Shown piece by piece: positions 832 to 37,923 of a stretch of DNA of 64,000 nt. How positions within the stretch are numbered: position 1 is the stretch's first letter; every line of letters starts with the position of its first letter. Position numbers and translations under genes: made by a program. The notes beneath the pieces are model-generated. The model saw only the letters and a list, made by a program, of their open reading frames with translations, searched no databases and was not told the origin of the DNA. This stretch comes from an uncultured Clostridia bacterium (GTDB lineage Bacteria > Bacillota > Clostridia > TANB77 > CAG-465): assembly GCA_947626975.1 (NCBI GenBank), contig CANQUF010000001.1:22980-86979 (forward strand), read 5' to 3'.

Positions 832-1722
832 TTAATATATAATATTTACTTTTGATTTTCTTAAATAACTAGAAAATTCATCTATACTCATACTTCTATT
901 AGCATAAATTCTTGGAATTTCATATAAATTATGCTTATTAGAATAATATACTCCACCACTCATAGCAAGACCGTATTTATAATTATTTTTTGCAACTTCT
1001 ATTATATTTTTATTATACTTACCTATAGGATAACATATTGTATCTACTTTTATATCATATGTACTTTCCAAATATTTTTTAGAGTCTACTAGCTCTTTTT
1101 GCATCTCATTTAATGAAAGAGATGTAAGTTCACGATGAGTTAAAGTATGAGTTTGAACTGATACAAGGCCACTATCTATCATTTCTTTTATTTGATCACT
1201 AGTTAAATAATTAGGTCCATTAACATAGTTGCATATTATATAGATACTTGCTTTTTGATTATATTTTTTTAGCAATGGAAAAGCATTATTATAAAAATAT
1301 ACAAAGCAGTCATCAAATGTAAGTGCTACTGGTTTAGTATAATTTGATAAGTCCTCAATCTCATTTACAAATACAGTTTGATATCCATTATCAACAATAT
1401 ACTTTAATTGTTCTTCTAAAGTAGATGGTCTTAAAAAATTTTCAACATCTAAATTCTCACCATAATCATCTAAAATAAAATGATACATAAAAATTGGAAG
1501 TGATACGTCTAATTCTTTATATATTTTTTCTTCACCATTTGCAATACTAATATTTTCAATGTTTATATAATTTTTATCTTCTTTAAAAAAATTAAAAGTT
1601 TTTATTGCTATTAAATCTTTATTTTTTACAAAATAAAGAAAAGCTGGAGATAATAATAAAATTAAAATAATAAGAATAAACTTTATTCTATTTTTTACTT
1701 TAATTGTCATATATACCTCCAT
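832..1722 (-). CDS. polysaccharide deacetylase (NodB/CE4 family), N-terminal signal-anchor
   Basis: NodB motifs: LTFDDC, HTLTHRELTSLS and PIFMYHF. There is a single N-terminal TM after a basic stretch, so the catalytic domain is probably extracytoplasmic. It is paralogous to the 9050..9949 product. Confidence 0.75.
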   Translation of the reverse strand: MEVYMTIKVKNRIKFILIILILLLSPAFLYFVKNKDLIAIKTFNFFKEDKNYINIENISIANGEEKIYKELDVSLPIFMYHFILDDYGENLDVENFLRPSTLEEQLKYIVDNGYQTVFVNEIEDLSNYTKPVALTFDDCFVYFYNNAFPLLKKYNQKASIYIICNYVNGPNYLTSDQIKEMIDSGLVSVQTHTLTHRELTSLSLNEMQKELVDSKKYLESTYDIKVDTICYPIGKYNKNIIEVAKNNYKYGLAMSGGVYYSNKHNLYEIPRIYANRSMSIDEFSSYLRKSKVNIIY

Positions 1723-1783
1723 ATTTATTTTTATAAAATATTAATATTTAAATGATTTTAAATTTTATGTATTAATAATACAA

Positions 1784-3130
1784 TTATTTGTCTTTATCAA
1801 ATATTTTGGCACCTGTTCTCTTCTTAGAACTTAATTCATCTGACTTATTAACTAAATCTTCTTTATATTCTTTTTTATTATTTAATCTTTTTCTAATCTT
1901 AAGATCTTCATCTTTAGTTTTACTATTTACACTATTTTTATTATTTTTTTTGTATAAATATAAGATAAATATAAATTCAATAAGTATTATTGCTAACATT
2001 GCTAATATACCATACTTTGATCTTACTAAATTATATACTTTTCTTAAGAAACTATCATTATCATTTTCACTCTTTAAATAATTAATTTCTTCGTCTTCTA
2101 CTAAACTAGGATCTTTTACAACTTTTATTACGTATTCTTTCGTAGTAGTGCCATCTTCAGATGTTACTTTTACTGTAATAGTATTTTCTCCATCTTGTAA
2201 TCTGTCATTACCAATTATTTCAATATTTACATTTTCATTTTCTCCGAATGCAAGAATTTTTAAATTTTCTATACTTGCACCTACAGTACCGCAATCATAT
2301 TCAAATATTTCCTTTGAAAACTCAGGTGACAATGTAGCATTTTCTACAATCAAATTAAGCAAATATGAATTAGATTTTACCGGGTCAGCTGTTTTTGTAG
2401 CAACAATTGTATAAACTTTTTTTGTTCCATCTTGTGCAGTTACAGTTATAGTAATATTATTATCTCCTGCTTTTAAATCTTTATTACCAGTAATAGTAAC
2501 TTTTGAAGTTGATGCTTCTGGAACTGCTGTAATATTCAATTCACTTATATTTTCACCAATAGTTATAGTATAATTAGTTTTATTTTTATTAAAATTAGGC
2601 GTTAATCCTTCTTGATCTACTTGTAATTTTGATAAATATGCATTATTGTTTTTTACAGATGTATTTGATACTGTATTATTAGTAGTATTAATATTATTAT
2701 TATTAGTATTAGTATTATTTACTTGAGGTGCACTAACAGTTATAGTTTTTGATGCTGTTATAACACCAGTGCCATTAACTTTAGTATCAGTTTTAAAATC
2801 TACTGCTTCTAACATTTTAAATTCAAAGGTGTATGTTCCAACTGAAGTTGGTGTATAAGAATATGTCTTTGAAGCAATACCATTAATAGTGCTGCTATCA
2901 AAATTCCATAATCCTTCTGATTTTATTACTTGACCATTGCAAGTTAATGTTGCTGAGGTATATGCACCAACAGAAGTACCTAAATTAACATTTATATTAA
3001 CACTCTGTCCCAAAGTAATATTATTTGCACTCATACTAGCTGCTCTAATATCTTTAGATATAAAGAAATAAAATAAAATAATAAATACAAATATTATATA
3101 TCTAAACTTACTTTTCATATTTACCTCCAT
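1784..3130 (-). CDS. surface protein with two cadherin-like beta-sandwich domains, type-I membrane anchored
   Basis: Signal peptide, an Ig-like N-terminal domain and an N/T-rich linker. Two repeats of the LSxLxVxxGxLxPxFxxxxxxYxxxV...VTAxDGTxKxYTIxV pattern (cadherin-like beta-sandwich). C-terminal TM (ILAMLAIILIEFIFILYLY) plus a ~60-aa Lys-rich cytoplasmic tail. Confidence 0.6.
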   Translation of the reverse strand: MEVNMKSKFRYIIFVFIILFYFFISKDIRAASMSANNITLGQSVNINVNLGTSVGAYTSATLTCNGQVIKSEGLWNFDSSTINGIASKTYSYTPTSVGTYTFEFKMLEAVDFKTDTKVNGTGVITASKTITVSAPQVNNTNTNNNNINTTNNTVSNTSVKNNNAYLSKLQVDQEGLTPNFNKNKTNYTITIGENISELNITAVPEASTSKVTITGNKDLKAGDNNITITVTAQDGTKKVYTIVATKTADPVKSNSYLLNLIVENATLSPEFSKEIFEYDCGTVGASIENLKILAFGENENVNIEIIGNDRLQDGENTITVKVTSEDGTTTKEYVIKVVKDPSLVEDEEINYLKSENDNDSFLRKVYNLVRSKYGILAMLAIILIEFIFILYLYKKNNKNSVNSKTKDEDLKIRKRLNNKKEYKEDLVNKSDELSSKKRTGAKIFDKDK

Positions 3131-5649
3131 TACTCTTGTACAATTTTATTTATATTCAATATATGTTTTTGTAATTTTTGTAAATCAATCGTTGTTGGTT
3201 CACCACCATCTTTTTTTATATCAGATGATAGTTTTTGTATATTTGATAAAGCTTTTATTTTTAATATAGCTTTCTGCATTATTTGTAAATCAATTGTATT
3301 TATTAACCCTTCTCCATTTATATCACCATAAATAACAACTGAATAACTTTGAATCACATCTTTACTCTCTTTATCAGTAAGTTCAATAGTTGTTCCTGTT
3401 CCAACTAAATCATTATCTAAAATAATCTTGTTATTAATATCTTTTATTACAACTTCATATTTTTCTTTATTATATGTTAGTTTATTTAACAATTCAGAAA
3501 TTTTAGTATTTGGCTCTATTTTACTTATAATATTTTCTTTATCATTAACATTTATTTCTTTGTCAAATGTTAAGAAATCAGCTTCAGATATATCAATAAC
3601 TTTTACTTTAGCAGTTACACTTTTTTCACCATCTTTTGTCTTAAATACAACATCTGTACTACCAGAATTTACACCCTTTATTTTATTATTTTCAATTTTT
3701 ACAATATTTTCATTTTTACTTGTTACACTATACTCTTTATTTGTAGCATCATCTGGTGATATAGTAGGTACTATTGTCAAATACTTTCCTTTAATCATAG
3801 TATAATTTTCTTTAGGTATTGTTATATTTTCAACTTTTGATATAACTGTAACATTACAAGTTGAAGTAAGTCCAGTATCAATAGCTTTAACTGTTATTGT
3901 TGCATTACCTGATTTATTTGCAGTAATCTTTCCATTTTCTACTGATACAATACTTGAATCACTACTAGACCATTCTACATTTTTATTTGTGGCATCCTCT
4001 GGCTCAATTTTATACGTTAATTCTTTATTTTCGCCTTTATTTAAAGTAAGTTCAGTATCATCTAAAGTTATTTTTGTAACTTTTTTTACTACATTAACTT
4101 TACATGTTGCAGTCATTTCATTATCTAGAGATTTTACAGTAATTGTAGCTTCACCTTTTGATTTTGCTGTAAGTTTTCCATTTTCAACACTTACAATATC
4201 ACCATTACTACTAGACCATTCTACATCTTTGTTTGTTGCATTATTTGGTAATATTGTACAAGTAAGATCATATGTATCACCTAAATTCATTTCTAAATTT
4301 GTAGTATTTAAAGATATTCCTGTTACTTTTACATTTGTGTCAACTTCTTTTGTATAGTCTCTAAATACATATCCTTCTATACCGTTATCAAGTCTTACTT
4401 TATCCCATTGTGTATTTAAACTTTTAGCAATTCTTGTCATTTGGTCACCTTCATCAAGTTTTGCTACTATAGAGTATGTTGTTCCTGGACCTGATCTAAT
4501 ATACAATTTTGATGGAGCTACATCATAAGCGGCTATTCTTGTATTATCAGATACATACTCCTCTGAATTATTACCTGGATATGGTGAAAGAGAATCAGGC
4601 ATATTATTAAATACAGGAATATGAAACTCAAATACATTATTTAACATACCCATTTTTTCATATGCTGTATATGTACTATATGATTCATTTGTTGGTGCAA
4701 GAATATTTGTCATATATTGATACGCATAAAGTGCTATTGCATTTCCATATGGATTGTTTACGTCAAATTTTTGAAAGTATGTTGTATCTTGTCCCCACTT
4801 TATCCATTGATTTTTTAAGATATCTGTTCCACCTTTAATAGCACTATCAGGATCAGTCCAATTTTTATTTTTTGCATATTTAAGACCATTAGTAATAGAA
4901 TCTGGTGGAGTTGCACCAATATTAAAATAGTTGTATGGAACTACTCCATCAATAACAGTTGAACCGTTTATTGAACGATTAGAAGTAATATTTCCACCAG
5001 TTTCTTGTTTTATTCTTGATGCAATATATACACCACTAACGTTATATTGTTTTGCAGCATCTAGAATAATACTAGAATAAGTCTTATTCATATTAATCAT
5101 TGATCCTTGTTTTTGATATTCTGATCTATTATACATTGATGTACCATATAATACTTTTTCAATAGAATCTATAGTATCCATAGATTTACTATAGCTTAAA
5201 GTTTGAAATTGAAATACTTCTTTTTCATTTATATGGTTTCTTGGATCTAACATATATTTTACAGCTGGTATTGAAGCAATAACCCAACCACCATCATCAA
5301 TCTGATAATCTTGTCCATCTTTTTTCCATGCAGGATCATAACTTGATGGGACAGCACTAATTCCAGTATTTACTTCATAGCTTTCATGACTTACTGCCTC
5401 ATTCCAATCAAGACCTGTATATACTGCTTTAAATACCCAATTTGGATGAGCTTGCTTTAAGGCATTTATGTATGGTACGTAACTTGCTGGAAAATCATCT
5501 CTCATTTGTGATATAGGAAGTCCAGTCGTAATTTTTGCTTGTACTTGATTTATATTTGTAAATAATGGCATTATACTACATGTGATAATAGAAATTATTA
5601 CAAATAATATTGATATTTTCTTTATTTTTCCTTTTTTCTCATACATCAC
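3130..5649 (-). CDS. secreted multidomain glycan/peptidoglycan hydrolase (GH73-like catalytic region, SH3b, 3-4 Big_2 Ig-like domains, C-terminal dockerin-like module)
   Basis: Signal peptide. The N-terminal ~420 aa are paralogous to the N-terminus of the 1254-aa protein, with a QETGG...YNYFNIGA...GQDTTYFQKFDV pattern resembling glucosaminidase (GH73) motifs. The SH3b-like segment is SKLYIRSGPGTTYSIVAKL...GYVF. Big_2-like repeats follow (VTGISLN..., KITLDDTELTL..., ITIPKENYTMI...). The last ~65 aa look like a dockerin. Confidence 0.55.
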   Translation of the reverse strand: MMYEKKGKIKKISILFVIISIITCSIMPLFTNINQVQAKITTGLPISQMRDDFPASYVPYINALKQAHPNWVFKAVYTGLDWNEAVSHESYEVNTGISAVPSSYDPAWKKDGQDYQIDDGGWVIASIPAVKYMLDPRNHINEKEVFQFQTLSYSKSMDTIDSIEKVLYGTSMYNRSEYQKQGSMINMNKTYSSIILDAAKQYNVSGVYIASRIKQETGGNITSNRSINGSTVIDGVVPYNYFNIGATPPDSITNGLKYAKNKNWTDPDSAIKGGTDILKNQWIKWGQDTTYFQKFDVNNPYGNAIALYAYQYMTNILAPTNESYSTYTAYEKMGMLNNVFEFHIPVFNNMPDSLSPYPGNNSEEYVSDNTRIAAYDVAPSKLYIRSGPGTTYSIVAKLDEGDQMTRIAKSLNTQWDKVRLDNGIEGYVFRDYTKEVDTNVKVTGISLNTTNLEMNLGDTYDLTCTILPNNATNKDVEWSSSNGDIVSVENGKLTAKSKGEATITVKSLDNEMTATCKVNVVKKVTKITLDDTELTLNKGENKELTYKIEPEDATNKNVEWSSSDSSIVSVENGKITANKSGNATITVKAIDTGLTSTCNVTVISKVENITIPKENYTMIKGKYLTIVPTISPDDATNKEYSVTSKNENIVKIENNKIKGVNSGSTDVVFKTKDGEKSVTAKVKVIDISEADFLTFDKEINVNDKENIISKIEPNTKISELLNKLTYNKEKYEVVIKDINNKIILDNDLVGTGTTIELTDKESKDVIQSYSVVIYGDINGEGLINTIDLQIMQKAILKIKALSNIQKLSSDIKKDGGEPTTIDLQKLQKHILNINKIVQE
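3133..3340 (-). other. dockerin-like C-terminal module (two Ca-loop + helix segments)
   Basis: The first segment, GDINGEGLINTIDLQIMQKAIL, fits the type-I dockerin pattern (D-x-N-x-[DE]-G-x-I-N-x-x-D then LxxLxKxIL). The second, DIKKDGGEPTTIDLQKLQKHIL, has a conserved helix but a degenerate loop. Confidence 0.45.
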
Positions 5650-6413
5650 TTATTATCTCCTTTATTTAAAATTTGTATATAAGTTTTAACCTCTATAAAA
5701 TTATATCATAAAAGAAAAAAATGCAAAAGTATTTTGTAGAAATTTGTATACAGAATATATTATGTAAAAATGATATAGAGAAAAATTTTCAAGATAATTC
5801 TTGAATACTTTTTCCTTGTTAATTTCAATATGAAAATAGTTCTTCTACAATTTATTTAATATGTTAGTATCTTCGATATATTTTTTCCTTTGCCTTTTGT
5901 TGCTTTTAATAATGCATATTTATCTGTGCTATATGTTTTAACACATTATTTATGCTATAACTTCTGGAAGTAGTTGCATCAGTATGTATAAGGTACTATT
6001 TAGTATTTTCTTTTCTATATTTTCAATTAATAGTACAGATTTGTTTTTAATTCTATAATGAAATTTTCTATATTTCCATTAGATATATTTAGCTTGTTTT
6101 TTGATATCGATTTTATTAAATATGATAGTCTGTCAATTGCAACTAACCCTTCTATATTTAGAAAAGAGAATAAAGCTTTTATATCAGATCCATATTGTAC
6201 ATCTGTCTTAAATTCTTTTGGTATATTATATTTTCCATTTTCATCTTGATAAAATCTATATTCTTTAGCACTACATCTATTTTTATATCCAATACATATT
6301 TAGATATATATTTATCTGATACTTACCTACATTAATTACTTCATGAGTAACTTCTTATTATTTATTTGGTTTAATATCAGATGATGGAGGTAAGAGACGA
6401 ATTATCACTATTA

Positions 6414-6665
6414 TTACCTAATTGTTTTTTTAAGTCTATCTACTTCATTATATAATTTATTATTCTTGTCTTTTAAATCTTTTATTTTCTTTTTTAAGGC
6501 ATGTACTTCTTCTTTATGTGTTTTCTTTATTTGTTTAATTTCTTTTAAATATTTTTGAGAAGTTTGTCCTTTTACAATTTTTATTTCTTGTGATAAATTA
6601 TCACATTTTTTCATAACTTCTTCTAATTGTTTATACATATCATTCATCTGACCAATTGAAGACAT
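6414..6665 (-). CDS. small coiled-coil protein (83 aa), unknown function
   Basis: Heptad-rich Lys/Glu sequence with a plausible RBS (AAGGACGGTG) 7 nt upstream. It stands alone in a 1.4-kb AT-rich spacer. Confidence 0.3.
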   Translation of the reverse strand: MSSIGQMNDMYKQLEEVMKKCDNLSQEIKIVKGQTSQKYLKEIKQIKKTHKEEVHALKKKIKDLKDKNNKLYNEVDRLKKTIR

Positions 6666-7091
6666 AGTTTATCACCGTCCTTTAAATATATTATACAATA
6701 TATTTAGAGTAATACAAATTAAATTTATGTTACAAAATTGAGATAACAAACGAAAAAATATGAAAATGAGATAGAGTTATCCACATTTCCATATTTATAT
6801 TAAAAAAATTACTATTTTAACTTTTATTATATTAATATTTTCTTTGTATAATTATCCACAAATACATAATTTTGTTACTTAAATTTTATTTTTCTAGTCT
6901 AAATAGTAACAGATAACCGGTTTAATATATCAAATCTTATTGCATTGATACTTTTCTTGTTCTAATCCTTTAGTGACTCATTTAGAATAGTCGGGCTATA
7001 AAGGAATAAATTTTTTAGTATTATATTTTTTTCTGCACTATGTTATAATTTATTAATTTAACTATACATTATCGCGCTTTTTTGTATTATG

Positions 7092-8108
7092 TCAGTCACT
7101 ATTTAAAATATTCTTTTGATAATTCCAACTATCTCTACAAATATCCTCCAAAGTTTTTTCTGTTTTAAATCCTAATTCTTCTCGTGCTTTTGTTGGATCT
7201 GCATAATAGCAAGCTAAATCTCCAGGTCTTCTTTCTACAATTTTATATGGTATTTTTATATTATTTACTTTCTCAAAAGTTTTCACAATATCAAGTACAC
7301 TATATCCTGTTCCTGTTCCAAGATTATATATATATAATCCATTATCAGATGTATCTAATTTATTTAAAGCAAGCAAATGTCCTTTTGCTAAATCTACAAC
7401 ATGTATATAATCTCTAACTCCCGTTCCATCAGGTGTGTCATAATCATCGCCAAATACTGATAATTCACTTAAACTACCACTTGCAACTTTTTGAATATAT
7501 GGCATCAAGTTGTTTGGAATTCCTTGAGGTTCTTCACCTATAATTCCAGAACTATGTGCTCCAACAGGATTAAAATATCTTAAACTTACTATATTCCAAG
7601 TATTATCAGATTTATACAAATCATCAAGAATTATTTCTATCATTGACTTTGTAGTACCATAAGGACTTGTACCTCTTTTTATCTCCATACTTTCAACATA
7701 TTTTGTTGTACCTGGATTTCCGTATATAGTTGCTGATGAACTAAAAATGAATTTTTTAACATTATATTTTTTCATAACATCTAGTAATGTAAGTGCACCT
7801 GTAACATTATTTATATAATATTCTAAAGGTTTTTGTACAGACTCTCCTACTGCTTTATACCCTGCAAAATTTATTACTGCATCAATATCATTATTTTTAA
7901 AAATTTCTTCTAAAGTTTCTCTATTAGTATAATCTCCTTCATAAAATTTAAAGTCCTTATTTGTAATCTTTTTTATATTATCTAATGTTTTGGGTTTACT
8001 ATTAGAAAAGTTGTCAATAATAATTATTTCCCTTCCTGCATTTAATAGTTCTACACATGTATGAGAGCCAATATAACCTGCTCCTCCAGTTACTAGTATT
8101 TTCTTCAT
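7092..8108 (-). CDS. galE: UDP-glucose 4-epimerase
   Basis: Rossmann motif VTGGAGYIGSH, catalytic YGTTK (YxxxK), and a length (338 aa) and overall pattern typical of GalE. Confidence 0.85.
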   Translation of the reverse strand: MKKILVTGGAGYIGSHTCVELLNAGREIIIIDNFSNSKPKTLDNIKKITNKDFKFYEGDYTNRETLEEIFKNNDIDAVINFAGYKAVGESVQKPLEYYINNVTGALTLLDVMKKYNVKKFIFSSSATIYGNPGTTKYVESMEIKRGTSPYGTTKSMIEIILDDLYKSDNTWNIVSLRYFNPVGAHSSGIIGEEPQGIPNNLMPYIQKVASGSLSELSVFGDDYDTPDGTGVRDYIHVVDLAKGHLLALNKLDTSDNGLYIYNLGTGTGYSVLDIVKTFEKVNNIKIPYKIVERRPGDLACYYADPTKAREELGFKTEKTLEDICRDSWNYQKNILNSD

Positions 8109-8138: not shown

Positions 8139-9059
8139 CTAATGTTTTAGTATTTTCTTTATTAATATTTCGAATATAAGTTCAAATTTCCTTATATATT
8201 TTAGAATTTTAAAAATTAATATTTGAAATAAATTAGCCTGGTTATACTTTTTTTGAAAGTATATCTTACTGTCAAATAATATATCTTGTTTTTTAAATAC
8301 ACTCATTATTTTACCTATAGTTTTGCTTTCATAATGAGTAAATGATAATTTATTTAAAGAGTATATATCGTAATTAAATTTCTTTGCATTTACACTTATA
8401 ATATCCTCTTCATAGAATAAAAAAGTATTATCATCAAAATATCCTATATTTTTAAACAGTTCGTGATTTGCAATAAAAAAAGATCCAGCTATTGCATCGA
8501 CTTTTAATATTTCTTTTTTAAAATCATCTTTAGAATATTCTCCTTTTTTAAAAAATGGATATAGTAAAAACTGTGTTATACGAGTAGAATTTGCAATATC
8601 AGTTATAACATTTCTATGCTTCCAAGCACTTCTTCTTGCAGGGCCATTTATGTAATTCATTCTTGGAGATGCTATTACACAATTTTCATTTTTATCTAAA
8701 AATTGAATTGTATTTATTATATCTTGCTCTTTTATATATACATCAGGATTTGATATTATAACGTATTTAAACGTATCAACTCCATAATGTTTATCAATAT
8801 ATTTTAAGCCATAATTATTACCATATGCATATCCACCATTCTTATTACTAACTATAACCTCAACTTTACTAGAAGTAAGCTTTTGTAGACTTTTAACTTC
8901 ATCTTTATTAGTGGAGTTATTGTCTACTATTATAACCTTATCTAATATTTTATAGTCTTTTATATTTTTTATAATTTCCTCTGTATTTTCTTTATCGTTA
9001 TAATTTAATATTATCATTGCTATAGACATAACAGTTACCTTTCTTAACTTTATTCCCAT
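8139..9059 (-). CDS. glycosyltransferase family 2
   Basis: GT-A N-terminus (IILNYNDKENT...IIVDNNSTN) and an acidic DxD region. It overlaps the upstream deacetylase gene by 10 nt. Confidence 0.7.
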   Translation of the reverse strand: MGIKLRKVTVMSIAMIILNYNDKENTEEIIKNIKDYKILDKVIIVDNNSTNKDEVKSLQKLTSSKVEVIVSNKNGGYAYGNNYGLKYIDKHYGVDTFKYVIISNPDVYIKEQDIINTIQFLDKNENCVIASPRMNYINGPARRSAWKHRNVITDIANSTRITQFLLYPFFKKGEYSKDDFKKEILKVDAIAGSFFIANHELFKNIGYFDDNTFLFYEEDIISVNAKKFNYDIYSLNKLSFTHYESKTIGKIMSVFKKQDILFDSKIYFQKKYNQANLFQILIFKILKYIRKFELIFEILIKKILKH

Positions 9060-30995: not shown

Positions 30996-31787
30996 TTATA
31001 ATACATCTGCAAAATCTTTTTTATTTTTCTTAAATACATAATTACTCCATATAAATATTATGAATACAAAAATCCAAAATATTATAGTTGGTATTCCATG
31101 CATTGCTAATATATGTGTTTCACCTGTAAAAGCACATCTAAATCCATTTACTAAATAAGTAAATGGCATACAACTTACTATCTTATATAATAGTTGATGA
31201 CCTTGTAGCATTGATATATTCCAAATAATTGGAGTAAACCAAAATAAAAGTTGCATAAGCACACCCAAAAGTTGTACAAAGTCAGGAACCAAAGTACAAA
31301 TTGCAGAGGTTAGCCTAGTTATAGAAATTATAAGAGCATATACTGCTATAAGTAAATATATTAATTCTATTACATTTATAATATATCCATATATAGCACA
31401 TACAACAATTGATATTATAAATAGAAATATTCCTACAATACCTGCAGATGTTAATGATATAACAGGAATTATATCAACAGGAAAAACTACTTTTTTTACT
31501 AAATAACTATAATTTCTTATAGAACCACTTGCATTTAAAATGCTGTCATTTATTAACATCCACATGGACATACCTGGTAAGAACCAAACAACATAAGGAT
31601 AATTACCAGCACTACCAGTTTTTAATATATATTGAAAAACAATAACATAAGTAAGCATAAATATAAATGGAGAAACAAAGCCCCATATGGCTCCTAGACT
31701 TGTACCCGCAAATCTATTTTTAAAATCATTTTTCCCTAGTTGAGCAACTAGTTTTCTATTCTTAATCAATGTTTTTATAAATTCCAT
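30996..31787 (-). CDS. wzm: polysaccharide ABC exporter permease (ABC-2 type; Wzm/TagG/RgpC-like)
   Basis: Six predicted TM helices, 263 aa, paired with wzt. Confidence 0.75.
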   Translation of the reverse strand: MEFIKTLIKNRKLVAQLGKNDFKNRFAGTSLGAIWGFVSPFIFMLTYVIVFQYILKTGSAGNYPYVVWFLPGMSMWMLINDSILNASGSIRNYSYLVKKVVFPVDIIPVISLTSAGIVGIFLFIISIVVCAIYGYIINVIELIYLLIAVYALIISITRLTSAICTLVPDFVQLLGVLMQLLFWFTPIIWNISMLQGHQLLYKIVSCMPFTYLVNGFRCAFTGETHILAMHGIPTIIFWIFVFIIFIWSNYVFKKNKKDFADVL

Positions 31788-31904
31788 TTCTATTCCCCTT
31801 TAATATTATGATATAAGTATGGTACAATTATATCATTAGTATTATTTTTTTTCAACAAAAAAACATATAAATCGTTAATAATTTATATGTTTTTATAGTA
31901 TTTA

Positions 31905-32867
31905 CTAATATTCTTTATTCTCATACCATTCAATTGTCTGTCTTAATCCTTCTTCAACTGTAACTGATGGCTCCCATCCAAGTTCTCTTTTTATTTTAGA
32001 AGAATTAATAGCATATCTATAATCATGCCCTTTTCTATCTTCAACAAAACTAATTAAATCCTCTGATTTTCCAAGTTGTTTTAATATTGTTTTTACAATC
32101 TCTAAGTTAGTTTTTTCGTTATTTCCACCAACGTTATATATCTCACCTTTAACACCTTTATGAAGTACAGTATCAATTGCAATACAATGATCCTTAACAA
32201 ATAACCAATCTCTTATGTTATTGCCTGTCCCATATATAGGTAATTTTTCACCTGCTTTTGCTTTTTTTATCATTAACGGAATTAACTTTTCTTCATGCTG
32301 ATTAGGTCCATAATTATTTGAACATCTTGTTATACAAACATTCATTTTAAAAGTTTCACCGTATGCTCTTACAACTAAATCAGATCCTGCTTTTGAAGCA
32401 GAATATGGACTATTAGGTGCAAGTGGTAATGTCTCTACAAACATATCATCACCATCTTTTAAAGTTCCATAAACTTCATCAGTAGAAACATGAACAAATC
32501 TATTTTCAGAGCCTTCTCCCCATACTCTTTTGCATGCTTCAATTAAAGAGTTAGTTCCCAATACATTATTTTCAGTAAATGTAAGTGGCCTTTTAATACT
32601 ATTATCAACATGAGATTCAGCAGCAAAATGAACTACCGCATCGATGTTATACTTTTTTAAGGTTTCTTCTACTTTATCAATATCACAAATATCTGCTTTT
32701 ACAAATTCATATTTACCTTCCGATGGTTTTAAATTATCAATATTTGCAGCATATGTCATTTTATCATATACAACATATGTATATTTATCTTTATATTTTT
32801 CTACCATATAATTTACAAAATTTGATCCAATAAATCCTGCTCCACCTGTTATTAATATATTTTTCAT
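31905..32867 (-). CDS. rmlB: dTDP-glucose 4,6-dehydratase
   Basis: ITGGAGFIGSNFV, catalytic YSASKA, and 320 aa. Confidence 0.9.
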   Translation of the reverse strand: MKNILITGGAGFIGSNFVNYMVEKYKDKYTYVVYDKMTYAANIDNLKPSEGKYEFVKADICDIDKVEETLKKYNIDAVVHFAAESHVDNSIKRPLTFTENNVLGTNSLIEACKRVWGEGSENRFVHVSTDEVYGTLKDGDDMFVETLPLAPNSPYSASKAGSDLVVRAYGETFKMNVCITRCSNNYGPNQHEEKLIPLMIKKAKAGEKLPIYGTGNNIRDWLFVKDHCIAIDTVLHKGVKGEIYNVGGNNEKTNLEIVKTILKQLGKSEDLISFVEDRKGHDYRYAINSSKIKRELGWEPSVTVEEGLRQTIEWYENKEY

Positions 32868-32881
32868 TTAATTTCCTCCAT

Positions 32882-33475
32882 TTATTTTAGATTTTTAAAT
32901 AAATCTGACTTTTTTAATTCTTGTAAAGATGGCCATTTAGCATCTTTCTCAGATGTTAAAAGTTCTTCTTTAGAAATATTATCCATAGGCCAATTAATAC
33001 CTACATCTGGATCATTCCATTTAAGTCCACCCTCAGATTCATGATTATATACATCATCACATTTATATGCAAATTCTGCTTCATCAGATAGTACTAAAAA
33101 TCCATGAGCAAATCCTCTTGGTATCATAAACATTTTTTTATTTTCTTCAGAAAGAATCACACCTTCCCATTTACCATAAGTTTTACTATTTGGTCTTAAA
33201 TCAACAGCCACATCAAAAACTTTACCTTTTAGACACCTTACAAGTTTTGCTTGTGAATTTTCTTTTTGAAAATGAAGACCTCTTAAAACACCTTTCTTGG
33301 ATTTAGATTGATTGTCTTGAACAAATTTATTTGTTATTCCAATTTCAGCGAACTCACTTTCACTATATGTTTCCATAAAATACCCTCTACTATCGCCAAA
33401 AACTGTTGGTTCAATAATATATACTCCCTCAATACTAGTATCAGTTTTTTTAAATTTTCCCATTAAATTATTCAC
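32882..33475 (-). CDS. rmlC: dTDP-4-dehydrorhamnose 3,5-epimerase
   Basis: Cupin-fold RmlC pattern ([17 protein letters not shown]), 197 aa. Confidence 0.85.
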
Positions 33476-34334
33476 CTACTATTCTTTTAATATATTTACC
33501 ATACTCAGTCTTTTTATATTTATCTGCAAATTCTAAAGCTTTAGTTTTATCAATCCATTTATTTTTATAAGCTATTTCTTCTAAACACGCAATTTGTATT
33601 CCTTGTCTTAATTCAATTGCTTTTACAAAATCGGCAGCATCATTAAGTCTATCTGCAGTTCCTGTATCAAACCAAGCAAATCCACGTCCTAGAGGTATAA
33701 CTTTAAGTTTGCCTTCTTCCATATATACTCTGTTTACATCTGTAATTTCTAATTCTCCTCTCGCTGATGGTTTAATTTCTTTTGCAATTTTAACTACATC
33801 ATTATCATAAAAATACAACCCTGGAACAGCCAAGTTTGATTTTGGAATTTTTGGCTTTTCTTCTATTGATATAGCATTACCATTTTTATCTATTTCAACA
33901 ACTCCATAAGAAGTAGGATCAGAGACTTCATATCCAAAAATTACTCCACCCTCTTTTAGATTTCCTGCATCTTTTAACATATCTTCAAGTCCAGGACCAT
34001 AGATCATATTGTCTCCTAATATTAATGCAACATTATCATTACCAATAAAATCAGCACCCAATCTAAAAGCATCTGCAAGTCCAACTGGCTTTTCTTGTAC
34101 TTTATATGAAAGACTCATGCCAAGCTCAGAACCATCTCCTAGTAACATTTCAAACATAGGCAAATGCACAGGTGTAGATATAATTAATACCTCTCTTATA
34201 CCAGCTTGCATTAATGTTGATAATGGATAATATATCATTGGTTTATCATATACAGGTAACATTTGTTTTGAAACTGCTAAAGTAACAGGATATAATCTTG
34301 TGCCGCTTCCACCAGCTAAAATAATTCCTTTCAT
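33468..34334 (-). CDS. rmlA: glucose-1-phosphate thymidylyltransferase
   Basis: [11 protein letters not shown] motif. The likely true ATG (MKGIILAGG) is at 34334 with a GGAGG RBS; the listed ORF start at 34379 is an upstream extension. ATG overlaps the rmlD stop (TAATG). Confidence 0.9.
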
Positions 34335-35200
34335 TATTTTAATTCCTCCTTTAAATACTCTTTTAATGCATCCTCCCAATTTTTTGGATAGATTCCAACA
34401 CTATGTAATTTATTTTTTAGTAATTTACTATTTGCTGGTCTATCACTAGAATTTGGATACATTTCTTTATACTGTTTAGAAGTTATAGGTATAACTTTTG
34501 TAGATACATTTGCAAATTCAAATATCTTTTTTGTAAAATCACTCCATACAGTAAATCCTTCATTTGTTGAATGATATATACCATACTTTGGTTCTTTTTC
34601 TAGAATTTGTTCTATAATTTCACAAAGACTTGTAGTAGAAGTTGGACTGCCATGTTGATCATTTACAACACTTATTTCATCTTTTGTTTCAGATAATTTA
34701 AGCATTGTTTTAACGAAGTTTTTTCCTCTTAGTCCATATAACCACGCTGTTCTTAAAATATAGTATTTATTAGCCTTCATGGCATTTTGTTCACCTAAAT
34801 ATTTTGTTTTCCCATAAGCACTCACTGGATTTGCAGGCATATCTTCAGTATATTCTTCTGAGATATCTAATTTTCCATCAAAAACATAATCAGTACTAAT
34901 TTGTATTAAAGTAGCATCTACTAAGTTAGTAGCTTCTGCAATATTTTCTAAGGCAATTCCGTTTACTGAATTTGCTAAATCAAAATTTGTTTCACAACCA
35001 TCAACATTTGTATATGCTGCGCAATTTATTATATAATATGGATTTATTTTTTTAACTTCGTTTATCACATCTTGTTTATTACATATATCTAAAGTTTCAA
35101 TAGTTGTTTTATATACATCATATTCTTTATTATTAGATAATCTTTCGTATAACTCTCCTCCAAGCATTCCATCTTGACCAATAACTAAAATCTTTTTCAT
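34334..35200 (-). CDS. rmlD: dTDP-4-dehydrorhamnose reductase
   Basis: RmlD-like Rossmann N-terminus ([12 protein letters not shown]), YGKTK catalytic motif, 288 aa. Confidence 0.85.
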
Positions 35201-35240: not shown

Positions 35241-36647
35241 TTATATATTTAGTAATTTCATAAACTCATCTTGAATTTTCTTCATATCTTCTTTAGTTTT
35301 ACCCTCAAATCTAGCAGTAATATTAGGTCCTGTATTTGATGCTCTAACTAGAGCCCAACCATTATCAAATTCAGCTCTAACACCATCAATATCATTTATT
35401 TTATATCCTTTATTAACACAATATTCTTTTATTTTTTCTATAACTTTAAATTTTTCGTCATCACTAGATACAAATTTTATTTCAGGTGTAGAATAATATT
35501 TATTTATTCCTTCTAATAATCCACTTACAGACTTATCAGTATTTGATAATATTTCAATAAGCCTTAATCCTGCATAAAGTCCATCATCAATATTTGGCCA
35601 TTTATCCCTAAAGAAAACATGACCTGAAAGTTCACTTCCAAAAGAGAAATCTCCTTCTTTCATTTTAGCTTTCATATATGAATTACCTGTTCTATAGCAT
35701 ACAGGTTCTCCACCAAGTTTTATAATCTCATCTGCTAAAGATTTTGTACATTTAACATCAAATAAAGCCTTTTTATTTGATACTTTATCCATTATATTTC
35801 TCCAAATAATTATTGCATAATAATCAATAAATACCATTTTTCCATTTTCATCGATTATTCCAACTCTATCTCCATCTCCATCAATACCTATACCAAGATC
35901 TGCTTTATTTTCCAATACAGCTTTTTTAAGATCTGCATTATTTTCTTCAACACTTGGATCTGGATGATGATTTGGAAAATTAGAATCAGACTCCATATAT
36001 AACGGAATTAATTCAACTTTATCTTTAAACATATCAAATACATCTTTTGCAATTATGGATGCAGTACCATTTGCAGTATCAACAACCACTTTTATCTTTC
36101 TATTTCCAAGTTTAATAGAATCTTTTATTAAATTTAAATATCCATCTTTTATATCTTCTTTTATTATATTACCTTTTACTTCATTATTATTTTTTTCTGA
36201 TTTTGAATTTTCTTCAACAAATTTTCTAAAATCTTGTATCATATCTCCACAAGCATTTCCAAAGTCATTAAAAGATATTTTAAGTCCATTATACTCTTTT
36301 GGATTATGGCTTGCAGTAATCATAATACCAGGCATAATATTTTTTCCGTCATTTAGAAAAATTTGAGCGTAATAATACATTGGCGTAGTACAAAGCCCTA
36401 TATCTATTACTTCTATATTTTCTCCTTCAATTATACCTTGTACTAGAGCTTTAAATAAAGGCATAGATGAACTCCTATTATCTCTTCCTATAACACACTT
36501 AGTATAACCATTATTTTTAATATATTTTGCATATGCAAGCCCTATTGTATAAGCTATATTTTCATCTAAATCATTACCATATATTCCACGTATATCATAC
36601 CCTCTATATATATTAGGGTTAATATTTTTTATAATTTCATATTTCAT
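35241..36647 (-). CDS. phosphoglucomutase/phosphomannomutase family protein
   Basis: Active-site TASHNP (phospho-Ser loop), metal loop GIDGDGDR, 468 aa. Confidence 0.8.
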   Translation of the reverse strand: MKYEIIKNINPNIYRGYDIRGIYGNDLDENIAYTIGLAYAKYIKNNGYTKCVIGRDNRSSSMPLFKALVQGIIEGENIEVIDIGLCTTPMYYYAQIFLNDGKNIMPGIMITASHNPKEYNGLKISFNDFGNACGDMIQDFRKFVEENSKSEKNNNEVKGNIIKEDIKDGYLNLIKDSIKLGNRKIKVVVDTANGTASIIAKDVFDMFKDKVELIPLYMESDSNFPNHHPDPSVEENNADLKKAVLENKADLGIGIDGDGDRVGIIDENGKMVFIDYYAIIIWRNIMDKVSNKKALFDVKCTKSLADEIIKLGGEPVCYRTGNSYMKAKMKEGDFSFGSELSGHVFFRDKWPNIDDGLYAGLRLIEILSNTDKSVSGLLEGINKYYSTPEIKFVSSDDEKFKVIEKIKEYCVNKGYKINDIDGVRAEFDNGWALVRASNTGPNITARFEGKTKEDMKKIQDEFMKLLNI

Positions 36648-36783
36648 ATTATCACCTGTTTGGATTATATCATATCATTTTATATTTTTAAACCTTTTTT
36701 CAAAAAAAACTACAAAATCAGTTAACGTTAACATAAATATAAAGCTAATTTTAAATAATATAAAATTAGCTTTATATGTAAAT

Positions 36784-37731
36784 TTATTTCTTTTTATTAA
36801 GATCCTTTTCAGTTTCTTTTATAAAATAAACTGGTCTTTTCTTTACTTCCAAATATGATTTTGACAAATATTCACCTATAATTCCAAGGAAAAATAATTG
36901 AATACCACTAAGCATAAATATAATACACACAAGAGATGGCCATCCAGATGTAGGGTCACCATATATTAATGTTTTTACAATTATGAATGCTATCATAATA
37001 ATTGCTATTATACAAAATAAAAAGCCTGTAAATGATGCCATTTTTAATGGTGCAGTCGAAAAAGAAGTTATTGCCTCTATTGCGTAAGAACATAATTTAA
37101 AAAACGAAAATTTAGATTTTCCTGCAATTCTTTCTTGATTTTCAAAATCTATCCATTTTGTATCATAGCCTACAAAAGCATAAATTCCATTTAAATATCT
37201 ATTATATTCTGACATTTCAAGTATACTATCTAGCATTTGTCTAGTCATAAGTCTATAATTTCTTGATCCATCTACAATTTTTACATTAACCATCTTATTT
37301 ATTATTTTATAATATAATTTAGAGCATATTGTTTTAATTATATTTTCACCTTTTCTATTTTTTCTTCTTGTAGCTACTGAGTCATATCCTTCTTCTTTTA
37401 TTATTCTATACATTTCTTTTAATAATTGTGGCGGATCTTGTAGATCTGCATCTATTGTTGCTATATAATCTCCTGTTGCCTCTTTAAACCCAGCAAGCAT
37501 TGCTGCCTCTTTACCAAAATTTCTTGAAAATGATAAATACCTTACATATTTATTTTCATTTGCATATTTTCTTATTATTTCTAATGTTTTATCTTTACTT
37601 CCATCATTTACAAATAATAATTCAAATTCTACATAATCCATATCTTTAATTACTTTATTTATCTCAATAAAAAAATTAGGTAATGCCTGTTCTTCATTAT
37701 AACAAGGAACTATAATTGATATTTTCTCCAT
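36784..37731 (-). CDS. GT2 polyprenyl-phosphate glycosyltransferase with C-terminal TM pair (GtrB/CsbB-like); first gene of locus
   Basis: ISIIVPCYNEE...VNDGSKD with a DADLQD (DxD) motif and two C-terminal TM helices. The likely start is MEKIS at 37731; the listed ORF extends to 37776. Confidence 0.7.
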   Translation of the reverse strand: MEKISIIVPCYNEEQALPNFFIEINKVIKDMDYVEFELLFVNDGSKDKTLEIIRKYANENKYVRYLSFSRNFGKEAAMLAGFKEATGDYIATIDADLQDPPQLLKEMYRIIKEEGYDSVATRRKNRKGENIIKTICSKLYYKIINKMVNVKIVDGSRNYRLMTRQMLDSILEMSEYNRYLNGIYAFVGYDTKWIDFENQERIAGKSKFSFFKLCSYAIEAITSFSTAPLKMASFTGFLFCIIAIIMIAFIIVKTLIYGDPTSGWPSLVCIIFMLSGIQLFFLGIIGEYLSKSYLEVKKRPVYFIKETEKDLNKKK

Positions 37732-37923
37732 AAATTTCTCCTTTAAATTGTTTATATTTATACCATATAATAACATAATTTTGCTTAAAAATCAATATAT
37801 TACTTATTTTAAACAACTATAAATATTTATTAATATATAAAATTTTAATATATATAATATTTTATTATCATATTTTTTACAAAAAAAATAATGGCACACT
37901 TTACTTAAGTATACCATTAACTT

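Follow-up and report, generated by a model that had tools for sequence, protein, structure and literature searches.

A predicted ABC-exported rhamnose wall-glycopolymer locus with an embedded wall-protein module beside mreBCD-mrdA in an uncultured Clostridia bacterium

What polymer does the glycan locus beside the rod-shape genes of an uncultured gut Clostridia bacterium produce, and do all of its genes serve that polymer? We analyzed the locus within a 64-kb stretch of DNA (the window), where it occupies positions 832-37776 of the minus strand. The sequence-only reading had described a co-directional run of about 30 genes next to mreBCD-mrdA, overlapping or separated by 0-60 nt. The ORF list confirmed the locus, its strand and its upstream neighbors on the same strand (radC, mreB, mreC, mreD and PBP2/mrdA, 37924-40062) but reduced the count to 27 consecutive ORFs (g01-g27). 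The tight spacing held for 21 of the 26 internal junctions, where neighboring genes overlap or lie no more than 61 nt apart, and failed at three junctions of 112-136 nt (g01/g02, 136 nt; rmlB/wzm, 117 nt; g17/g18, 112 nt); the gap between PBP2 and g01 is 147 nt. Co-directionality is not peculiar to the locus, as nearly all genes of the window share the strand: among the non-nested ORFs of 100 aa or more in the whole 64 kb, only five are on the plus strand, and the GC skew is negative throughout. The GC content of the locus (0.21-0.29) does not differ from that of its surroundings, and a length of 37 kb is not clearly unusual among Gram-positive rhamnopolysaccharide loci (Epa, lactococcal cwps).

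Pfam and NCBIfam bore out nearly all of the earlier gene identities one for one (Table 1), with rmlD, rmlA, rmlC, rmlB, metK, galE, mrdA and MreB passing curated NCBIfam equivalog or subfamily cut-offs. We consider it probable that the locus makes a wall glycopolymer with an L-rhamnose backbone, through an ABC-transporter route followed by extracytoplasmic decoration, and that a wall-remodeling module is embedded in it.

Table 1. Features of the locus in the order of the minus strand, with the evidence for each
Feature	Position	Strand	Basis
Terminator-like hairpin	37880..37923	-	13-bp stem + T8, directly after PBP2/mrdA stop codon
g01, GtrB/PgfS/ArnC-type polyprenyl-phosphate GT2, two C-terminal TM helices	36784..37776	-	profiles, PDB
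g02, phosphoglucomutase/phosphomannomutase (PGM)	35241..36647	-	profile matches
g03-g06, rmlD, rmlA, rmlC, rmlB (dTDP-L-rhamnose synthesis)	31905..35200	-	all four above equivalog cut-offs
g07, Wzm ABC-2 permease	30996..31787	-	profile match
g08, GT2, one C-terminal TM helix, between wzm and wzt	30007..30984	-	profile match, TM prediction
g09, Wzt ATPase + C-terminal Wzt_C carbohydrate-binding domain	28648..29997	-	Wzt_C 113.9 bits
g10, class I SAM methyltransferase, C-terminal coiled-coil tail	27378..28664	-	profile match
g11, MetK, S-adenosylmethionine synthetase, in-cluster	26211..27350	-	496 bits vs cut-off 309
g12, cytoplasmic dual-GT2 glycosyltransferase	24396..26195	-	profile matches
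g13, fusion methyltransferase + dual GT2, 1139 aa, WsaE-like architecture	20946..24365	-	profiles, paralogy
g14, GT2 + GT4 two-domain glycosyltransferase	18703..20931	-	profile matches
g15, soluble GT2, 246 aa, polyprenyl-phosphate sugar synthase (GacI/WpsA/PpgS-like)	17931..18671	-	profiles
g16, DUF2304, three TM (GacJ/WpsB/Rv3632-like activator)	17552..17929	-	DUF2304 77 bits
g17, DUF7657 + DUF7654 polytopic membrane protein	15409..17577	-	structure model with GT-C fold
g18 + g19, first wall-protein module copy	10736..15296	-	profiles, paralogy
g20 + g21, tandem DMT/SMR-like pair, ~four TM each	9976..10732	-	61% identical to each other
g22, N-terminally anchored polysaccharide deacetylase (PgaB/IcaB-like), g27 paralog	9050..9949	-	profiles
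g23, soluble GT2	8139..9059	-	weak similarity to RfbQ/WbbL-type rhamnosyltransferase subfamily
g24, GalE, UDP-hexose 4-epimerase	7092..8108	-	439.5 bits vs cut-off 262.3
Non-coding spacer, 1442 nt, between galE and g25	5650..7091	.	
g25-g27, second wall-protein module copy	832..5649	-	profiles, paralogy

Homology supports a local supply of precursors, in which PGM and RmlA/B/C/D would yield dTDP-L-rhamnose, MetK, found also in the related locus L014, would provide SAM, and GalE would form a UDP-4-epimer. The PGM gene, which opens the glycan locus in five relatives, had been taken as a sign of glucose in the polymer; it is not evidence for that, as most simply it would feed Glc-1-P to RmlA. No Wzx, Wzy, Wzy_C or Polysacc_synt domain was found in the locus ORFs of at least 100 aa or the other scanned ORFs of the window. 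Given rmlABCD, an ABC transporter and the lack of Wzx/Wzy, homology agrees with the earlier proposal of a rhamnose polymer made by the ABC-transporter route with methyl modification, and it supports Wzm/Wzt with its Wzt_C domain as the likely exporter. The ATPase domain of g09 found its best PDB matches in 8dku/7k2t (404-aa chains deposited as "ABC transporter", 240 bits), which we take to be the Aquifex O-antigen Wzt; TarH/TagH were also among the matches. Chain synthesis would begin on undecaprenyl phosphate with a transferase whose gene lies outside the window, and g08 and/or g23 would prime the chain, after which g12, g13 and g14 may polymerize it. A candidate adaptor glycosyltransferase, g08 keeps its place between wzm and wzt in L005 and L010; in L015, the counterpart of g23 comes after the SMR-like pair. 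The g14 gene is kept in L014, L015, L016 and the P0052 context, and its product gave no WsaF match at E 0.01 or better.

The cluster contains two sets of methyltransferase and dual GT2, one fused and the other split around metK. The g13 protein fuses paralogs of a stand-alone methyltransferase (g10, 35% identity over 355 aa to its N-terminal part) and of a dual-GT2 gene (g12, 44.5% identity over 566 aa to its C-terminal half). The counterpart of g13 is two separate genes in L014 and L015, and the fused form was found in one assembly only. In Geobacillus, the three-domain enzyme WsaE adds a 2-O-methyl cap to the rhamnan, and this cap is the proposed ligand of Wzt (PMC2943079). By analogy we infer a methyl cap: g10, a candidate capping enzyme, and/or the N-terminal domain of g13 would terminate the chain by O-methylation as WsaE does, and the Wzt_C domain would read the cap before export. 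Two methyltransferase domains and MetK could equally mean methylation all along the chain instead of a cap. Escherichia coli O8/O9a (WbdA/WbdD/Wzt) also combines a multidomain polymerase, a terminating methyltransferase with a coiled coil and a cap-recognizing Wzt C-terminal domain (PMC2943079), whereas the present locus has no kinase domain, a predicted rhamnose rather than mannose backbone and a Gram-positive host; the coiled coil of g10 spans only about 45 aa, and a ruler role would be speculation.

The slg cluster of Geobacillus stearothermophilus NRS 2004/3a shares rmlABCD, tight or overlapping genes and, after wzm/wzt, a gene for a large cytoplasmic enzyme with a methyltransferase and two glycosyltransferase domains, here likened to WsaE by domain architecture; its proposed logic, a methyl cap that ends the poly-L-rhamnan and is then bound by Wzt, is also the same (PMC2943079). 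That shared layout would suit a glycan O-linked to a surface protein, whether an S-layer protein as in slg or another, or to a BclA-like spore protein, instead of a peptidoglycan-linked polymer. Bacillus BclA carries rhamnose-containing O-glycans, and a collagen-repeat BclA_C protein is encoded at 47908-48813, 10 kb upstream. We nevertheless regard an O-glycan as very unlikely: the window lacks a WsaB-like oligosaccharyltransferase of the Wzy_C/O-antigen-ligase type, an initiator of the WbaP/WsaP type and any S-layer or SLH protein, and the BclA-like gene lies on the opposite strand, separated from the locus by the mre genes, radC and the gerA operon. The locus differs from slg further in having the methyltransferase and dual-GT2 set twice and an added extracytoplasmic side-chain module.

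For that side chain, homology supports g15 and g16 as a probable polyprenyl-phosphate sugar synthase pair of the GacI/GacJ type. The DUF2304 proteins GacJ and Rv3632 activate GacI and PpgS (bioRxiv 10.1101/180810), and WpsA/WpsB act likewise (PMC10821137). A similarity search with g15 matched DPMS, ArnC and GtrB; its best NCBIfam model was PpgS, at 87 bits far below the equivalog cut-off of 370. From its modeled fold, g17 is proposed as the side-chain transferase and the triad as a GacI/GacJ/GacL-like module. The triad was contiguous in 9 of 9 genomic contexts examined, with Wzm/Wzt genes present in all except L014 and L018, where none was seen in the 7-10 kb flanks read. The Und-P-sugar made by g15/g16 would be flipped, probably by the candidate flippase pair g20/g21, and moved onto the polymer by g17. 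Only g20 reached the EamA threshold, no ArnE/ArnF model matched either protein, and the SMR-like pair of L015 adjoins DUF2142, not the triad.

Among the closest parallels are streptococcal gacA-L and lactococcal cwps, with their dTDP-rhamnose genes, Wzm/Wzt-type export of a cytoplasmic rhamnan, a GT2 + DUF2304 pair (GacI/GacJ, WpsA/WpsB) making a polyprenyl-monophosphate sugar for an extracytoplasmic GT-C, and an initiator and LCP ligase outside the cluster. In contrast to them, Wzt here carries Wzt_C, methyltransferases and MetK lie in the cluster, large dual-GT2 proteins act as the presumed polymerases, a DUF7657/DUF7654 protein takes the proposed GT-C role of GacL/WpsJ, an SMR-like pair replaces the Wzx-type flippase (GacK/WpsG), autolysin, cadherin-like and deacetylase genes are embedded, and the host belongs to a rod-shaped-type (mreBCD-bearing), spore-forming Clostridia lineage and is not an ovococcus. 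Homology supports the kinship claimed with streptococcal/lactococcal rhamnans and slg clusters, and the cluster appears to be a large yet recognizable variant of these rhamnose surface-polysaccharide systems, an already-known kind. The mycobacterial PpgS/Rv3632/Rv3779 system (arabinogalactan galactosamine) also joins a soluble GT2 HexNAc synthase, a DUF2304 activator and a GT-C, and the nearby 4-epimerase (GalE) and deacetylases add to the likeness; the low PpgS score of g15 sets it apart, however, as do another acceptor polymer and deacetylases that are extracytoplasmic, PgaB/IcaB-like and in another module. An earlier association of "ArnE/F" genes with deacetylation dissolves, the N-terminally anchored deacetylases being part of a duplicated GH73-autolysin/cadherin-like/deacetylase module rather than of an Arn-like pathway.

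About five of the 27 genes encode secreted or anchored wall proteins and not biosynthetic enzymes: a pair each of GH73-like autolysins and anchored cadherin-like proteins, plus at least one deacetylase. In the first copy, the 1254-aa g18 is a secreted GH73-like protein carrying Big_2 repeats, and the 260-aa g19 is a membrane-anchored cadherin-like protein. The second copy, reported earlier beyond a ~1.4-kb spacer, is present and consists of g25 (839 aa), a GH73-like autolysin that also has SH3_3, Big_2 and dockerin domains, g26 (448 aa), an anchored cadherin-like protein, and g27 (296 aa), an anchored deacetylase; the three are paralogous to g18, g19 and g22 with 41%, 45% and 51% identity, respectively. 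The duplicated genes would form a separate wall-remodeling module inside the locus, and the anchored deacetylase might remove N-acetyl groups from the polymer, its linkage unit or peptidoglycan. The GH73/cadherin-like/deacetylase genes are one unit in L014, absent from L015 and duplicated in the window; the module moves independently among relatives. That variability, and the placement of nearly every window gene on one strand, would also fit a mosaic of functionally separate envelope modules merely side by side on the leading strand, with g02-g17 and g20-g24 as the rhamnan pathway proper, the two autolysin modules serving peptidoglycan remodeling or bacteriolysis, and g01 serving protein O-glycosylation or lipoteichoic-acid glycosylation elsewhere. 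Terminator-like hairpins flank g01, which among the compared loci is present only here, in L002 (same species) and in L005; its GT-C partner in relatives is a DUF2142 gene, missing here, and the 64-kb window yielded no second GT-C. The protein matched the PgfS model at 313 bits, under the cut-off, and Synechocystis GtrB (5ekp) at E 1e-74; PgfS, with the GT-C PgfM1 and the epimerase PgfE, O-glycosylates membrane-associated proteins including PBP1a (bioRxiv 10.1101/2024.05.05.592596), a precedent for such a role. We nevertheless consider the mosaic possible but doubtful. Neither the locus proteins nor PBP2 showed disordered Ser/Thr-rich stretches of the acceptor kind, and g18-g19 sit tightly between g17 and the SMR-like pair, with downstream gaps of 3-13 nt and no upstream terminator detectable in a hairpin scan, so that they are probably co-transcribed with the biosynthetic genes. 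In the preferred wall-glycopolymer pathway, g01 would supply a second Und-P-sugar.

As neither an initiating phosphoglycosyl transferase nor an LCP ligase was found in the 64-kb window, nor an oligosaccharyltransferase, how the pathway begins and ends is assumed, with ligation to peptidoglycan assigned to an LCP enzyme that would be encoded elsewhere. The missing LCP ligase would also suit a capsule-like, released or lipid-anchored polysaccharide (lipoglycan) that is not covalently wall-bound, and ABC-dependent pathways also make capsules and lipoglycans. We find such a product unlikely, since LCP genes are often unlinked and the closest functional analogues (rml, Wzm/Wzt, GacI/J-type decoration) are wall-bound. 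Ruminococcus gnavus glucorhamnan and the "clostrhamnan" of Clostridium saccharoperbutylacetonicum are likewise Clostridia wall polysaccharides with a rhamnose backbone and rml in the cluster, and the former is mostly released by mutanolysin, which argues for wall linkage (PMC6601261). In R. gnavus, however, repeat units are proposed to be flipped and polymerized outside the membrane, and LCP genes lie in the cluster (PMC6601261), whereas the present locus has Wzm/Wzt export and no LCP or polymerase.

The locus follows mreBCD-mrdA, yet it would be transcribed apart from those genes. Terminator-like hairpins lie 3' of PBP2, g01 (36728-36783), rmlB (31855-31904) and g27 (787-831), and near-consensus promoter-like sites precede PGM and wzm, the latter TTGAAA-17-TATAAT with a TG extension (31855..31827). 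A single transcription unit is thus improbable; at least four are predicted, g01 being probably monocistronic, and the hairpin after PBP2 (dG -14.9 kcal/mol, z -5.4) is predicted to part the elongasome operon from the glycan locus. Comparison of gene order found synteny with six related MAG species. Related MAGs keep the locus behind mrdA, as the claim of linkage to the rod-shape genes would have it, but the linkage loosens in the most distant of them and gene content varies between species. More distant loci also encode a 10-12-TM protein, Wzx-like by eye, that is absent here. Within the spacer between galE and g25 lie two perfect DnaA-box 9-mers and, on the minus strand, an ORF for an 83-aa coiled-coil protein (6414-6665).

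The window is very AT-rich (GC 0.21–0.31), and its GC skew is negative all along. According to the ORF list, an unbroken string of 27 minus-strand ORFs (g01 to g27, numbered in transcription order) runs from 37776 down to 832, right behind radC, mreB, mreC, mreD and a class B PBP. The elongasome string is complete, with MreB (444.7 bits against a cut-off of 293), MreC and MreD (both matched by Pfam) and the class B PBP2 (pbp2_mrdA, 538 against 455) side by side. Junctions inside the locus are mostly overlaps or gaps of 1–61 nt, while three measure 112–136 nt and one is a 1442-nt spacer. As the whole window has only five non-nested plus-strand ORFs of at least 100 aa, the co-directionality of the locus is uninformative. 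Pfam and NCBIfam domain matches across g01–g27 showed the gene list drawn up in the sequence-only reading to be essentially right (Table). An Rfam search of the window returned no riboswitch or other known RNA. The relatives found were uncultured Clostridia MAGs only, from rabbit, mouse and human gut, and proteins identical to those of the window are present in ENA metagenome assemblies and a 107-kb NCBI contig.

Features of the rhamnose locus, its flanks and related loci of other assemblies (L numbers; positions are those of the window unless a locus is named)
Feature	Position	Description
g01		GT2 with two C-terminal TM helices; best matches Synechocystis GtrB (E 1e-74), ArnC and the PgfS model
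g02		PGM/PMM
g03–g06	rmlA 33468–34379	RmlD, RmlA, RmlC, RmlB, each above the equivalog cut-off
g07		Wzm; ABC2_membrane 45.9 bits
g08		GT2 with one C-terminal TM helix
g09		Wzt; ABC_tran 86.8 bits, Wzt_C 113.9 bits (cut-off 30.4) at residues 296–433
g10		Class I methyltransferase with short C-terminal coiled coil
g11		MetK; 496 bits against 309
g12		Dual GT2
g13		1139 aa; methyltransferase and dual GT2
g14		GT2 and GT4
g15		Soluble GT2; best matches PpgS, AglJ, DPMS, ArnC, GtrB
g16		DUF2304; 77 bits
g17		DUF7657 and DUF7654; 11 TM-like segments
g18	11532–15296	1254 aa; signal sequence, GH73-like region matching autolysin AtlE, Big_2 repeats
g19		Cadherin-like; signal sequence and C-terminal anchor
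g20, g21		Small DMT/SMR-like proteins of about four TM helices; 61% identical to each other
g22		N-terminally anchored Polysacc_deac_1; PgaB/IcaB-like, one N-terminal TM helix
g23		Soluble GT2; weak match to a rhamnosyltransferase subfamily
g24		GalE; 439.5 bits against 262.3
g25	3130–5649	GH73/SagB-like; SH3_3, Big_2 and dockerin domains
g26		Anchored cadherin-like protein
g27		Anchored deacetylase; one N-terminal TM helix, then PgaB/IcaB-like domain
Spacer	5650–7091	Between galE (g24) and g25; 1442 nt
DnaA boxes	6777–6785, 6852–6860	Perfect 9-mers (TTATCCACA)
Coiled-coil ORF	6414–6665 (–)	83 aa
Hairpin and T-rich tract	37880–37923	After PBP2; dG –14.9 kcal/mol, z –5.4
Hairpin and T-rich tract	36728–36783	After g01; dG –16.8 kcal/mol, z –5.8
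Hairpin and T-rich tract	31855–31904	After rmlB; dG –11.8 kcal/mol, z –4.7
Hairpin and T-rich tract	787–831	After g27; dG –20.5 kcal/mol, z –6.7
Promoter-like site	36692..36664	Before PGM; extended –10
Promoter-like site	31855..31827	Before wzm; extended –10, 11/12 positions match
ORF	85–786 (+)	233 aa
recJ	52523–52984, 52953–54221 (–)	Two overlapping ORFs: DHH and DHHA1 (422 aa), RecJ OB domain (153 aa)
Collagen-repeat protein	47908–48813 (+)	BclA_C domain (exosporium BclA-like)
10–12-TM protein	L012 14194–15465	Beside DUF7657/GT2/DUF2304 triad; without recorded Pfam match
10–12-TM protein	L016 11077–12333	As above
10–12-TM protein	L017 11430–12662	As above
10–12-TM protein	L018 12849–14081	As above
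Metallo-beta-lactamase-fold gene	L012 2349–3248; L017 6006–6917; L018 1–209	In or beside the wzm/wzt pair
Insertion	L014 956–3022	ToxN-type toxin gene, acetyltransferase, two unknown small genes

The dTDP-L-rhamnose pathway is complete against the curated equivalog thresholds (RmlD 270.7 bits against 224.05, RmlA 453 against 360.65, RmlC 259.9 against 155.75 and RmlB 470.8 against 365.1). The mechanical ORF of rmlA begins at a TTG and overlaps rmlD by 46 nt; the 288-aa gene call in the same-species locus L002 and an rmlA model alignment starting at residue 17 indicate an internal ATG (MKGIILAGG) as the true start. For export, the predicted products include an ABC-2 permease and a Wzt/TagH-type ATPase of the ABC-transporter-dependent pathway, and the Wzt_C domain would place g09 in the cap-recognising subclass. 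The best PDB matches of the g09 ATPase domain were 8dku/7k2t (240 bits), deposited as 'ABC transporter' and which we take to be the Aquifex O-antigen Wzt, followed by TarH and TagH. Neither a Wzx flippase nor a Wzy polymerase was matched by Pfam or NCBIfam among the locus ORFs of at least 100 aa and the other scanned window ORFs, and the same ORFs included no O-antigen-ligase-type oligosaccharyltransferase or LCP protein. An initiating transferase (WecA/TagO/GacO or WbaP) is absent from the 64-kb window; streptococcal gacO also sits outside its cluster (bioRxiv 10.1101/180810). Our assignments of the start and end of the pathway, the sugar specificities and the methylation site are putative.

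The genes g15–g17 resemble a module for side-chain addition. The product of g15 has no TM helix, its gene lies 1 nt from g16, and the combination of a soluble GT2 synthase with an adjacent small DUF2304 membrane protein is shared with GacI/J/K/L- (WpsA/B/G/J-) type systems. The synthases GacI and PpgS, which make polyprenyl-phosphate HexNAc, are activated by the DUF2304 proteins GacJ and Rv3632, respectively, and the product is used by the GT-C enzyme GacL (bioRxiv 10.1101/180810); lactococcal WpsA/WpsB/WpsG/WpsJ follow the same logic, but with Und-P-GlcNAc being built up into an oligosaccharide beforehand (PMC10821137). The AlphaFold2 model of g17 is confident (pLDDT 92, pTM 0.91), and its best Foldseek matches are all GT-C glycosyltransferases using polyprenyl-linked donors (ArnT, AftA, STT3, PglB and EmbB), with low TM-scores of 0.3–0.4 that reflect fold-level rather than close likeness. 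Among g17 homologs, R132, D134 and E135 are invariant in the loop behind the third TM segment (54-sequence alignment). Judged by its model, g17 appears to be a GT-C fold transferase encoded alongside a GT2 and a DUF2304 protein. A profile search found 3,369 cluster representatives of the DUF7657 family at 50% identity (E 1e-3 or better), and in all nine genomic contexts (the window, L012/L013, the P0052 contig and L014 to L018) the DUF7657 gene adjoins genes for a GT2 of about 240 aa and a DUF2304 protein. Wzm/Wzt genes were seen in each of the nine except L014 and L018, where only 7–10 kb flanks were read. The N-terminal extension of DUF7657 relatives of about 830 aa, considered as a Rosetta-stone fusion, had no DUF2304 match.

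We propose that g15 and g16 make an Und-P-sugar, which may be extended by a neighboring glycosyltransferase such as g14 and flipped by g20/g21, and that g17 would transfer it to the exported rhamnan. The GacI/J/K/L-type system has a Wzx-type flippase, whereas no Wzx/MOP protein is found in the window. A 410–423-aa protein with 10–12 TM helices is conserved in the distant loci L012, L016, L017 and L018 (40–60% identity among them) and absent from the window; it is Wzx-like by eye, is probably the flippase of the distant triad loci, and would complete a GacI/J/K/L-type set. In the lineage of the window, the SMR/DMT-like pair g20/g21 may replace it. The EamA model scored 30.4 bits for g20 (cut-off 28.2) and 22.7 bits, below the cut-off, for g21, and the ArnE/F models matched neither protein, NCBIfam giving only weak EbrB/EmrE matches. 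Several distant DUF7657 loci also carry a metallo-beta-lactamase-fold gene at the wzm/wzt pair.

The SMR-like pair together with a deacetylase, a GT2 and GalE could alternatively form an Arn- or NaxD-like Und-P-aminosugar module. We rejected this reading because the deacetylases are N-terminally anchored and PgaB/IcaB-like, because they accompany GH73/cadherin-like genes in L014 and are absent beside the SMR-like pair in L015, and because g23 lacks TM helices and does not resemble GtrB/ArnC. In the Arn pathway, the lipid-linked sugar is the substrate of an ArnD/NaxD-like deacylase at the cytoplasmic face, and g22 and g27 are not of that type. In L015, a gene for a DUF2142 polytopic protein, presumably a GT-C clan member, directly precedes the pair; the same gene adjoins the g17 ortholog in both L014 and L015. 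It is absent from the window, which leaves g01, a second Und-P-sugar synthase, without a partner here; a tblastn search of the window for a pseudogene of the relatives' DUF2142 gene found nothing. No Ser/Thr-rich acceptor regions for Pgf-like protein glycosylation were found in the locus proteins or PBP2.

All-against-all BLASTP of the window proteins aligned residues 1–336 of g13 to g10 (35% identity over 355 aa) and residues 587–1127 to g12 (44.5% over 566 aa), so that the locus holds two methyltransferase and dual-GT2 sets, one fused in g13 and the other split, with metK between the halves (g10-metK-g12). One GT2 domain of g13 lies at 634–793, and we infer a second GT2-like region from the alignment to g12. 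In L014 and L015, whose g17 orthologs are 64 and 68% identical, respectively, the equivalent of g13 is two genes, one for a methyltransferase-containing protein of 569–602 aa and then one for a dual GT2 of 573–579 aa, which argues for the g13 fusion being lineage-specific. The fusion was observed in one assembly only, and exact-protein look-ups of g13 and g14 gave no match in other assemblies; with the entry from the same 107-kb contig set aside, no full-length relative of g13 in the database is more than 39% identical. In L014, the region between metK and the methyltransferase gene carries an insertion with a ToxN-type toxin gene.

The architecture of g13 also occurs in Gram-negatives, for example in a Pantoea protein, and its predicted three-domain layout, an N-terminal methyltransferase with two glycosyltransferase domains, resembles WsaE of G. 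stearothermophilus in architecture. WsaE makes two rhamnan linkages and 2-O-methylates the terminal rhamnose, and Wzt has been proposed to bind this methyl cap (PMC2943079). A WsaF-like GT4 was sought in g14 and gave no PDB match at E 0.01 or better. The Geobacillus slg cluster differs in having the WsaB O-oligosaccharyltransferase, the WbaP-type initiator WsaP and a linked S-layer gene, none of which is in the window.

Two sets of wall-protein genes are embedded in the locus, and their members are paralogs in the all-against-all BLASTP (g18/g25 41% identical over about 520 aa, g19/g26 45% and g22/g27 51%). L014 has the genes for a GH73-like Big_2 protein, a cadherin-like protein and a deacetylase in an uninterrupted row; L015 lacks the wall-protein genes, and after its g17 come DUF2142, the SMR-like pair and a g23 ortholog. 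This difference in gene order argues that the deacetylases belong with the autolysin-like genes and not with an Arn-like lipid-sugar pathway. The deacetylases may act on peptidoglycan, on the polymer itself or on its linkage unit, the last being reported for the streptococcal deacetylase PplD (bioRxiv 10.1101/2021.09.23.461590). Residues 725–789 of g18 score above the cut-off of the NCBIfam model 'BLB8/JUQZ-1 family protein' (70 bits, cut-off 40), which may reflect an Ig-like repeat only or point to a bacteriolysin-type function of the GH73-like protein. A type I dockerin ends the predicted GH73-like autolysin g25 (residues 774–831), and no cohesin protein was seen within the window.

The spacer between galE and g25 contains the only two perfect DnaA boxes in the 64-kb window, 75 nt apart, both inside an imperfect 39-nt direct repeat and about 110–190 nt upstream of an 83-aa coiled-coil ORF. 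The GC skew carries no origin signal at the site. Searching this ORF and the spacer translation against Pfam gave coiled-coil noise only, leaving an IS66-like transposase remnant unsupported.

Hairpins followed by T-rich tracts, together with promoter-like sites, divide the region into predicted units of mreBCD-mrdA, g01, PGM-rmlDACB, wzm to galE and g25–g27; the gap between g17 and g18 lacks one (z 0.3). Only the two near-consensus promoter sites in long intergenic gaps were used, as predictions, and they serve as leads only because the sigma-70 scan gave no more promoter-like sites in total than shuffled sequence.

The radC-mreBCD-PBP2 block is kept in six species-level relatives (PBP2 59–76% identical), while the content downstream differs. 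PGM and rmlDACB follow in L005 and L006, the former also having the g01 ortholog and wzm-g08. In L007, PGM is followed by a different Wzm/Wzt pair (Wzm 25% identical), and rml genes are missing from the 10 kb downstream; L009 has the same content as L007, except that 5.5 kb of unrelated genes precede its PGM. L008 shows PGM only, up to the contig end, and in L010 relA, an MBL-fold gene and UDG precede wzm-g08-wzt. From these downstream genes, the site is conserved, its content variable and the linkage looser with distance, which resembles the behavior of an antigen locus. Synteny by itself does not show functional coupling to the elongasome.

Considered as a whole, the locus functions like a cross between two systems, the Geobacillus slg cluster, with its methyl-capped rhamnan exported by an ABC transporter, and the streptococcal and lactococcal clusters, whose rhamnans receive extracytoplasmic decoration of the GacI/J/(K)/L or WpsA/B/G/J type. 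Our joint reading, advanced tentatively and with somewhat poorer than even chances, is that DUF7657/DUF7654 (about 3,400 representatives at 50% identity) is an uncharacterised GT-C family acting as the dedicated outside-membrane transferase of GacI/GacJ-type decoration in Wzm/Wzt loci, that an ArnE/F-like small DMT/SMR pair has replaced the Wzx-like flippase in this Clostridia lineage, and that a variable locus is held at a fixed site behind mreBCD-mrdA. On the same tentative reading, the location behind the elongasome genes would hint at a polymer that takes the place of teichoic acid in this lineage and whose synthesis keeps pace with side-wall growth.

In streptococci, enterococci and lactococci, wall polysaccharides rich in rhamnose are essential determinants of shape and antigenicity and also serve as phage receptors and vaccine targets; to our knowledge they have hardly been studied in gut Clostridia. 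Rhamnan wall polymers already known in Clostridia are clostrhamnan and the glucorhamnan of R. gnavus, the latter inflammatory (PMC6601261). As far as checked, the features new in comparison with slg, Gac/Wps and the Clostridia rhamnans are the duplicated, partly fused methyltransferase and dual-GT2 sets with an in-cluster MetK, the DUF7657/DUF7654 GT-C protein, an SMR-like pair in the absence of a Wzx-type flippase, the embedded autolysin/cadherin-like/deacetylase modules and the fixed position behind mrdA. No part of the locus overturns current understanding; it provides a pathway model specific enough to be tested, in an uncultured lineage of gut Clostridia with very AT-rich DNA that occurs in rabbit, mouse and human metagenomes, as well as a probable function for the large DUF7657/DUF7654 family, and a conserved chromosomal site with species-specific glycan genes is the pattern expected for a surface antigen under diversifying selection.

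Elsewhere in the window, an ORF of 233 aa without Pfam or NCBIfam match lies on the opposite strand just past the locus end, and recJ appears to be split, pointing to a frameshift that is either genuine or due to misassembly. Ten kilobases upstream of the rhamnose locus, a gene for a BclA-like collagen-repeat protein adjoins the gerA operon. Since Bacillus BclA is O-glycosylated with rhamnose-containing sugars, this protein could be an alternative acceptor.
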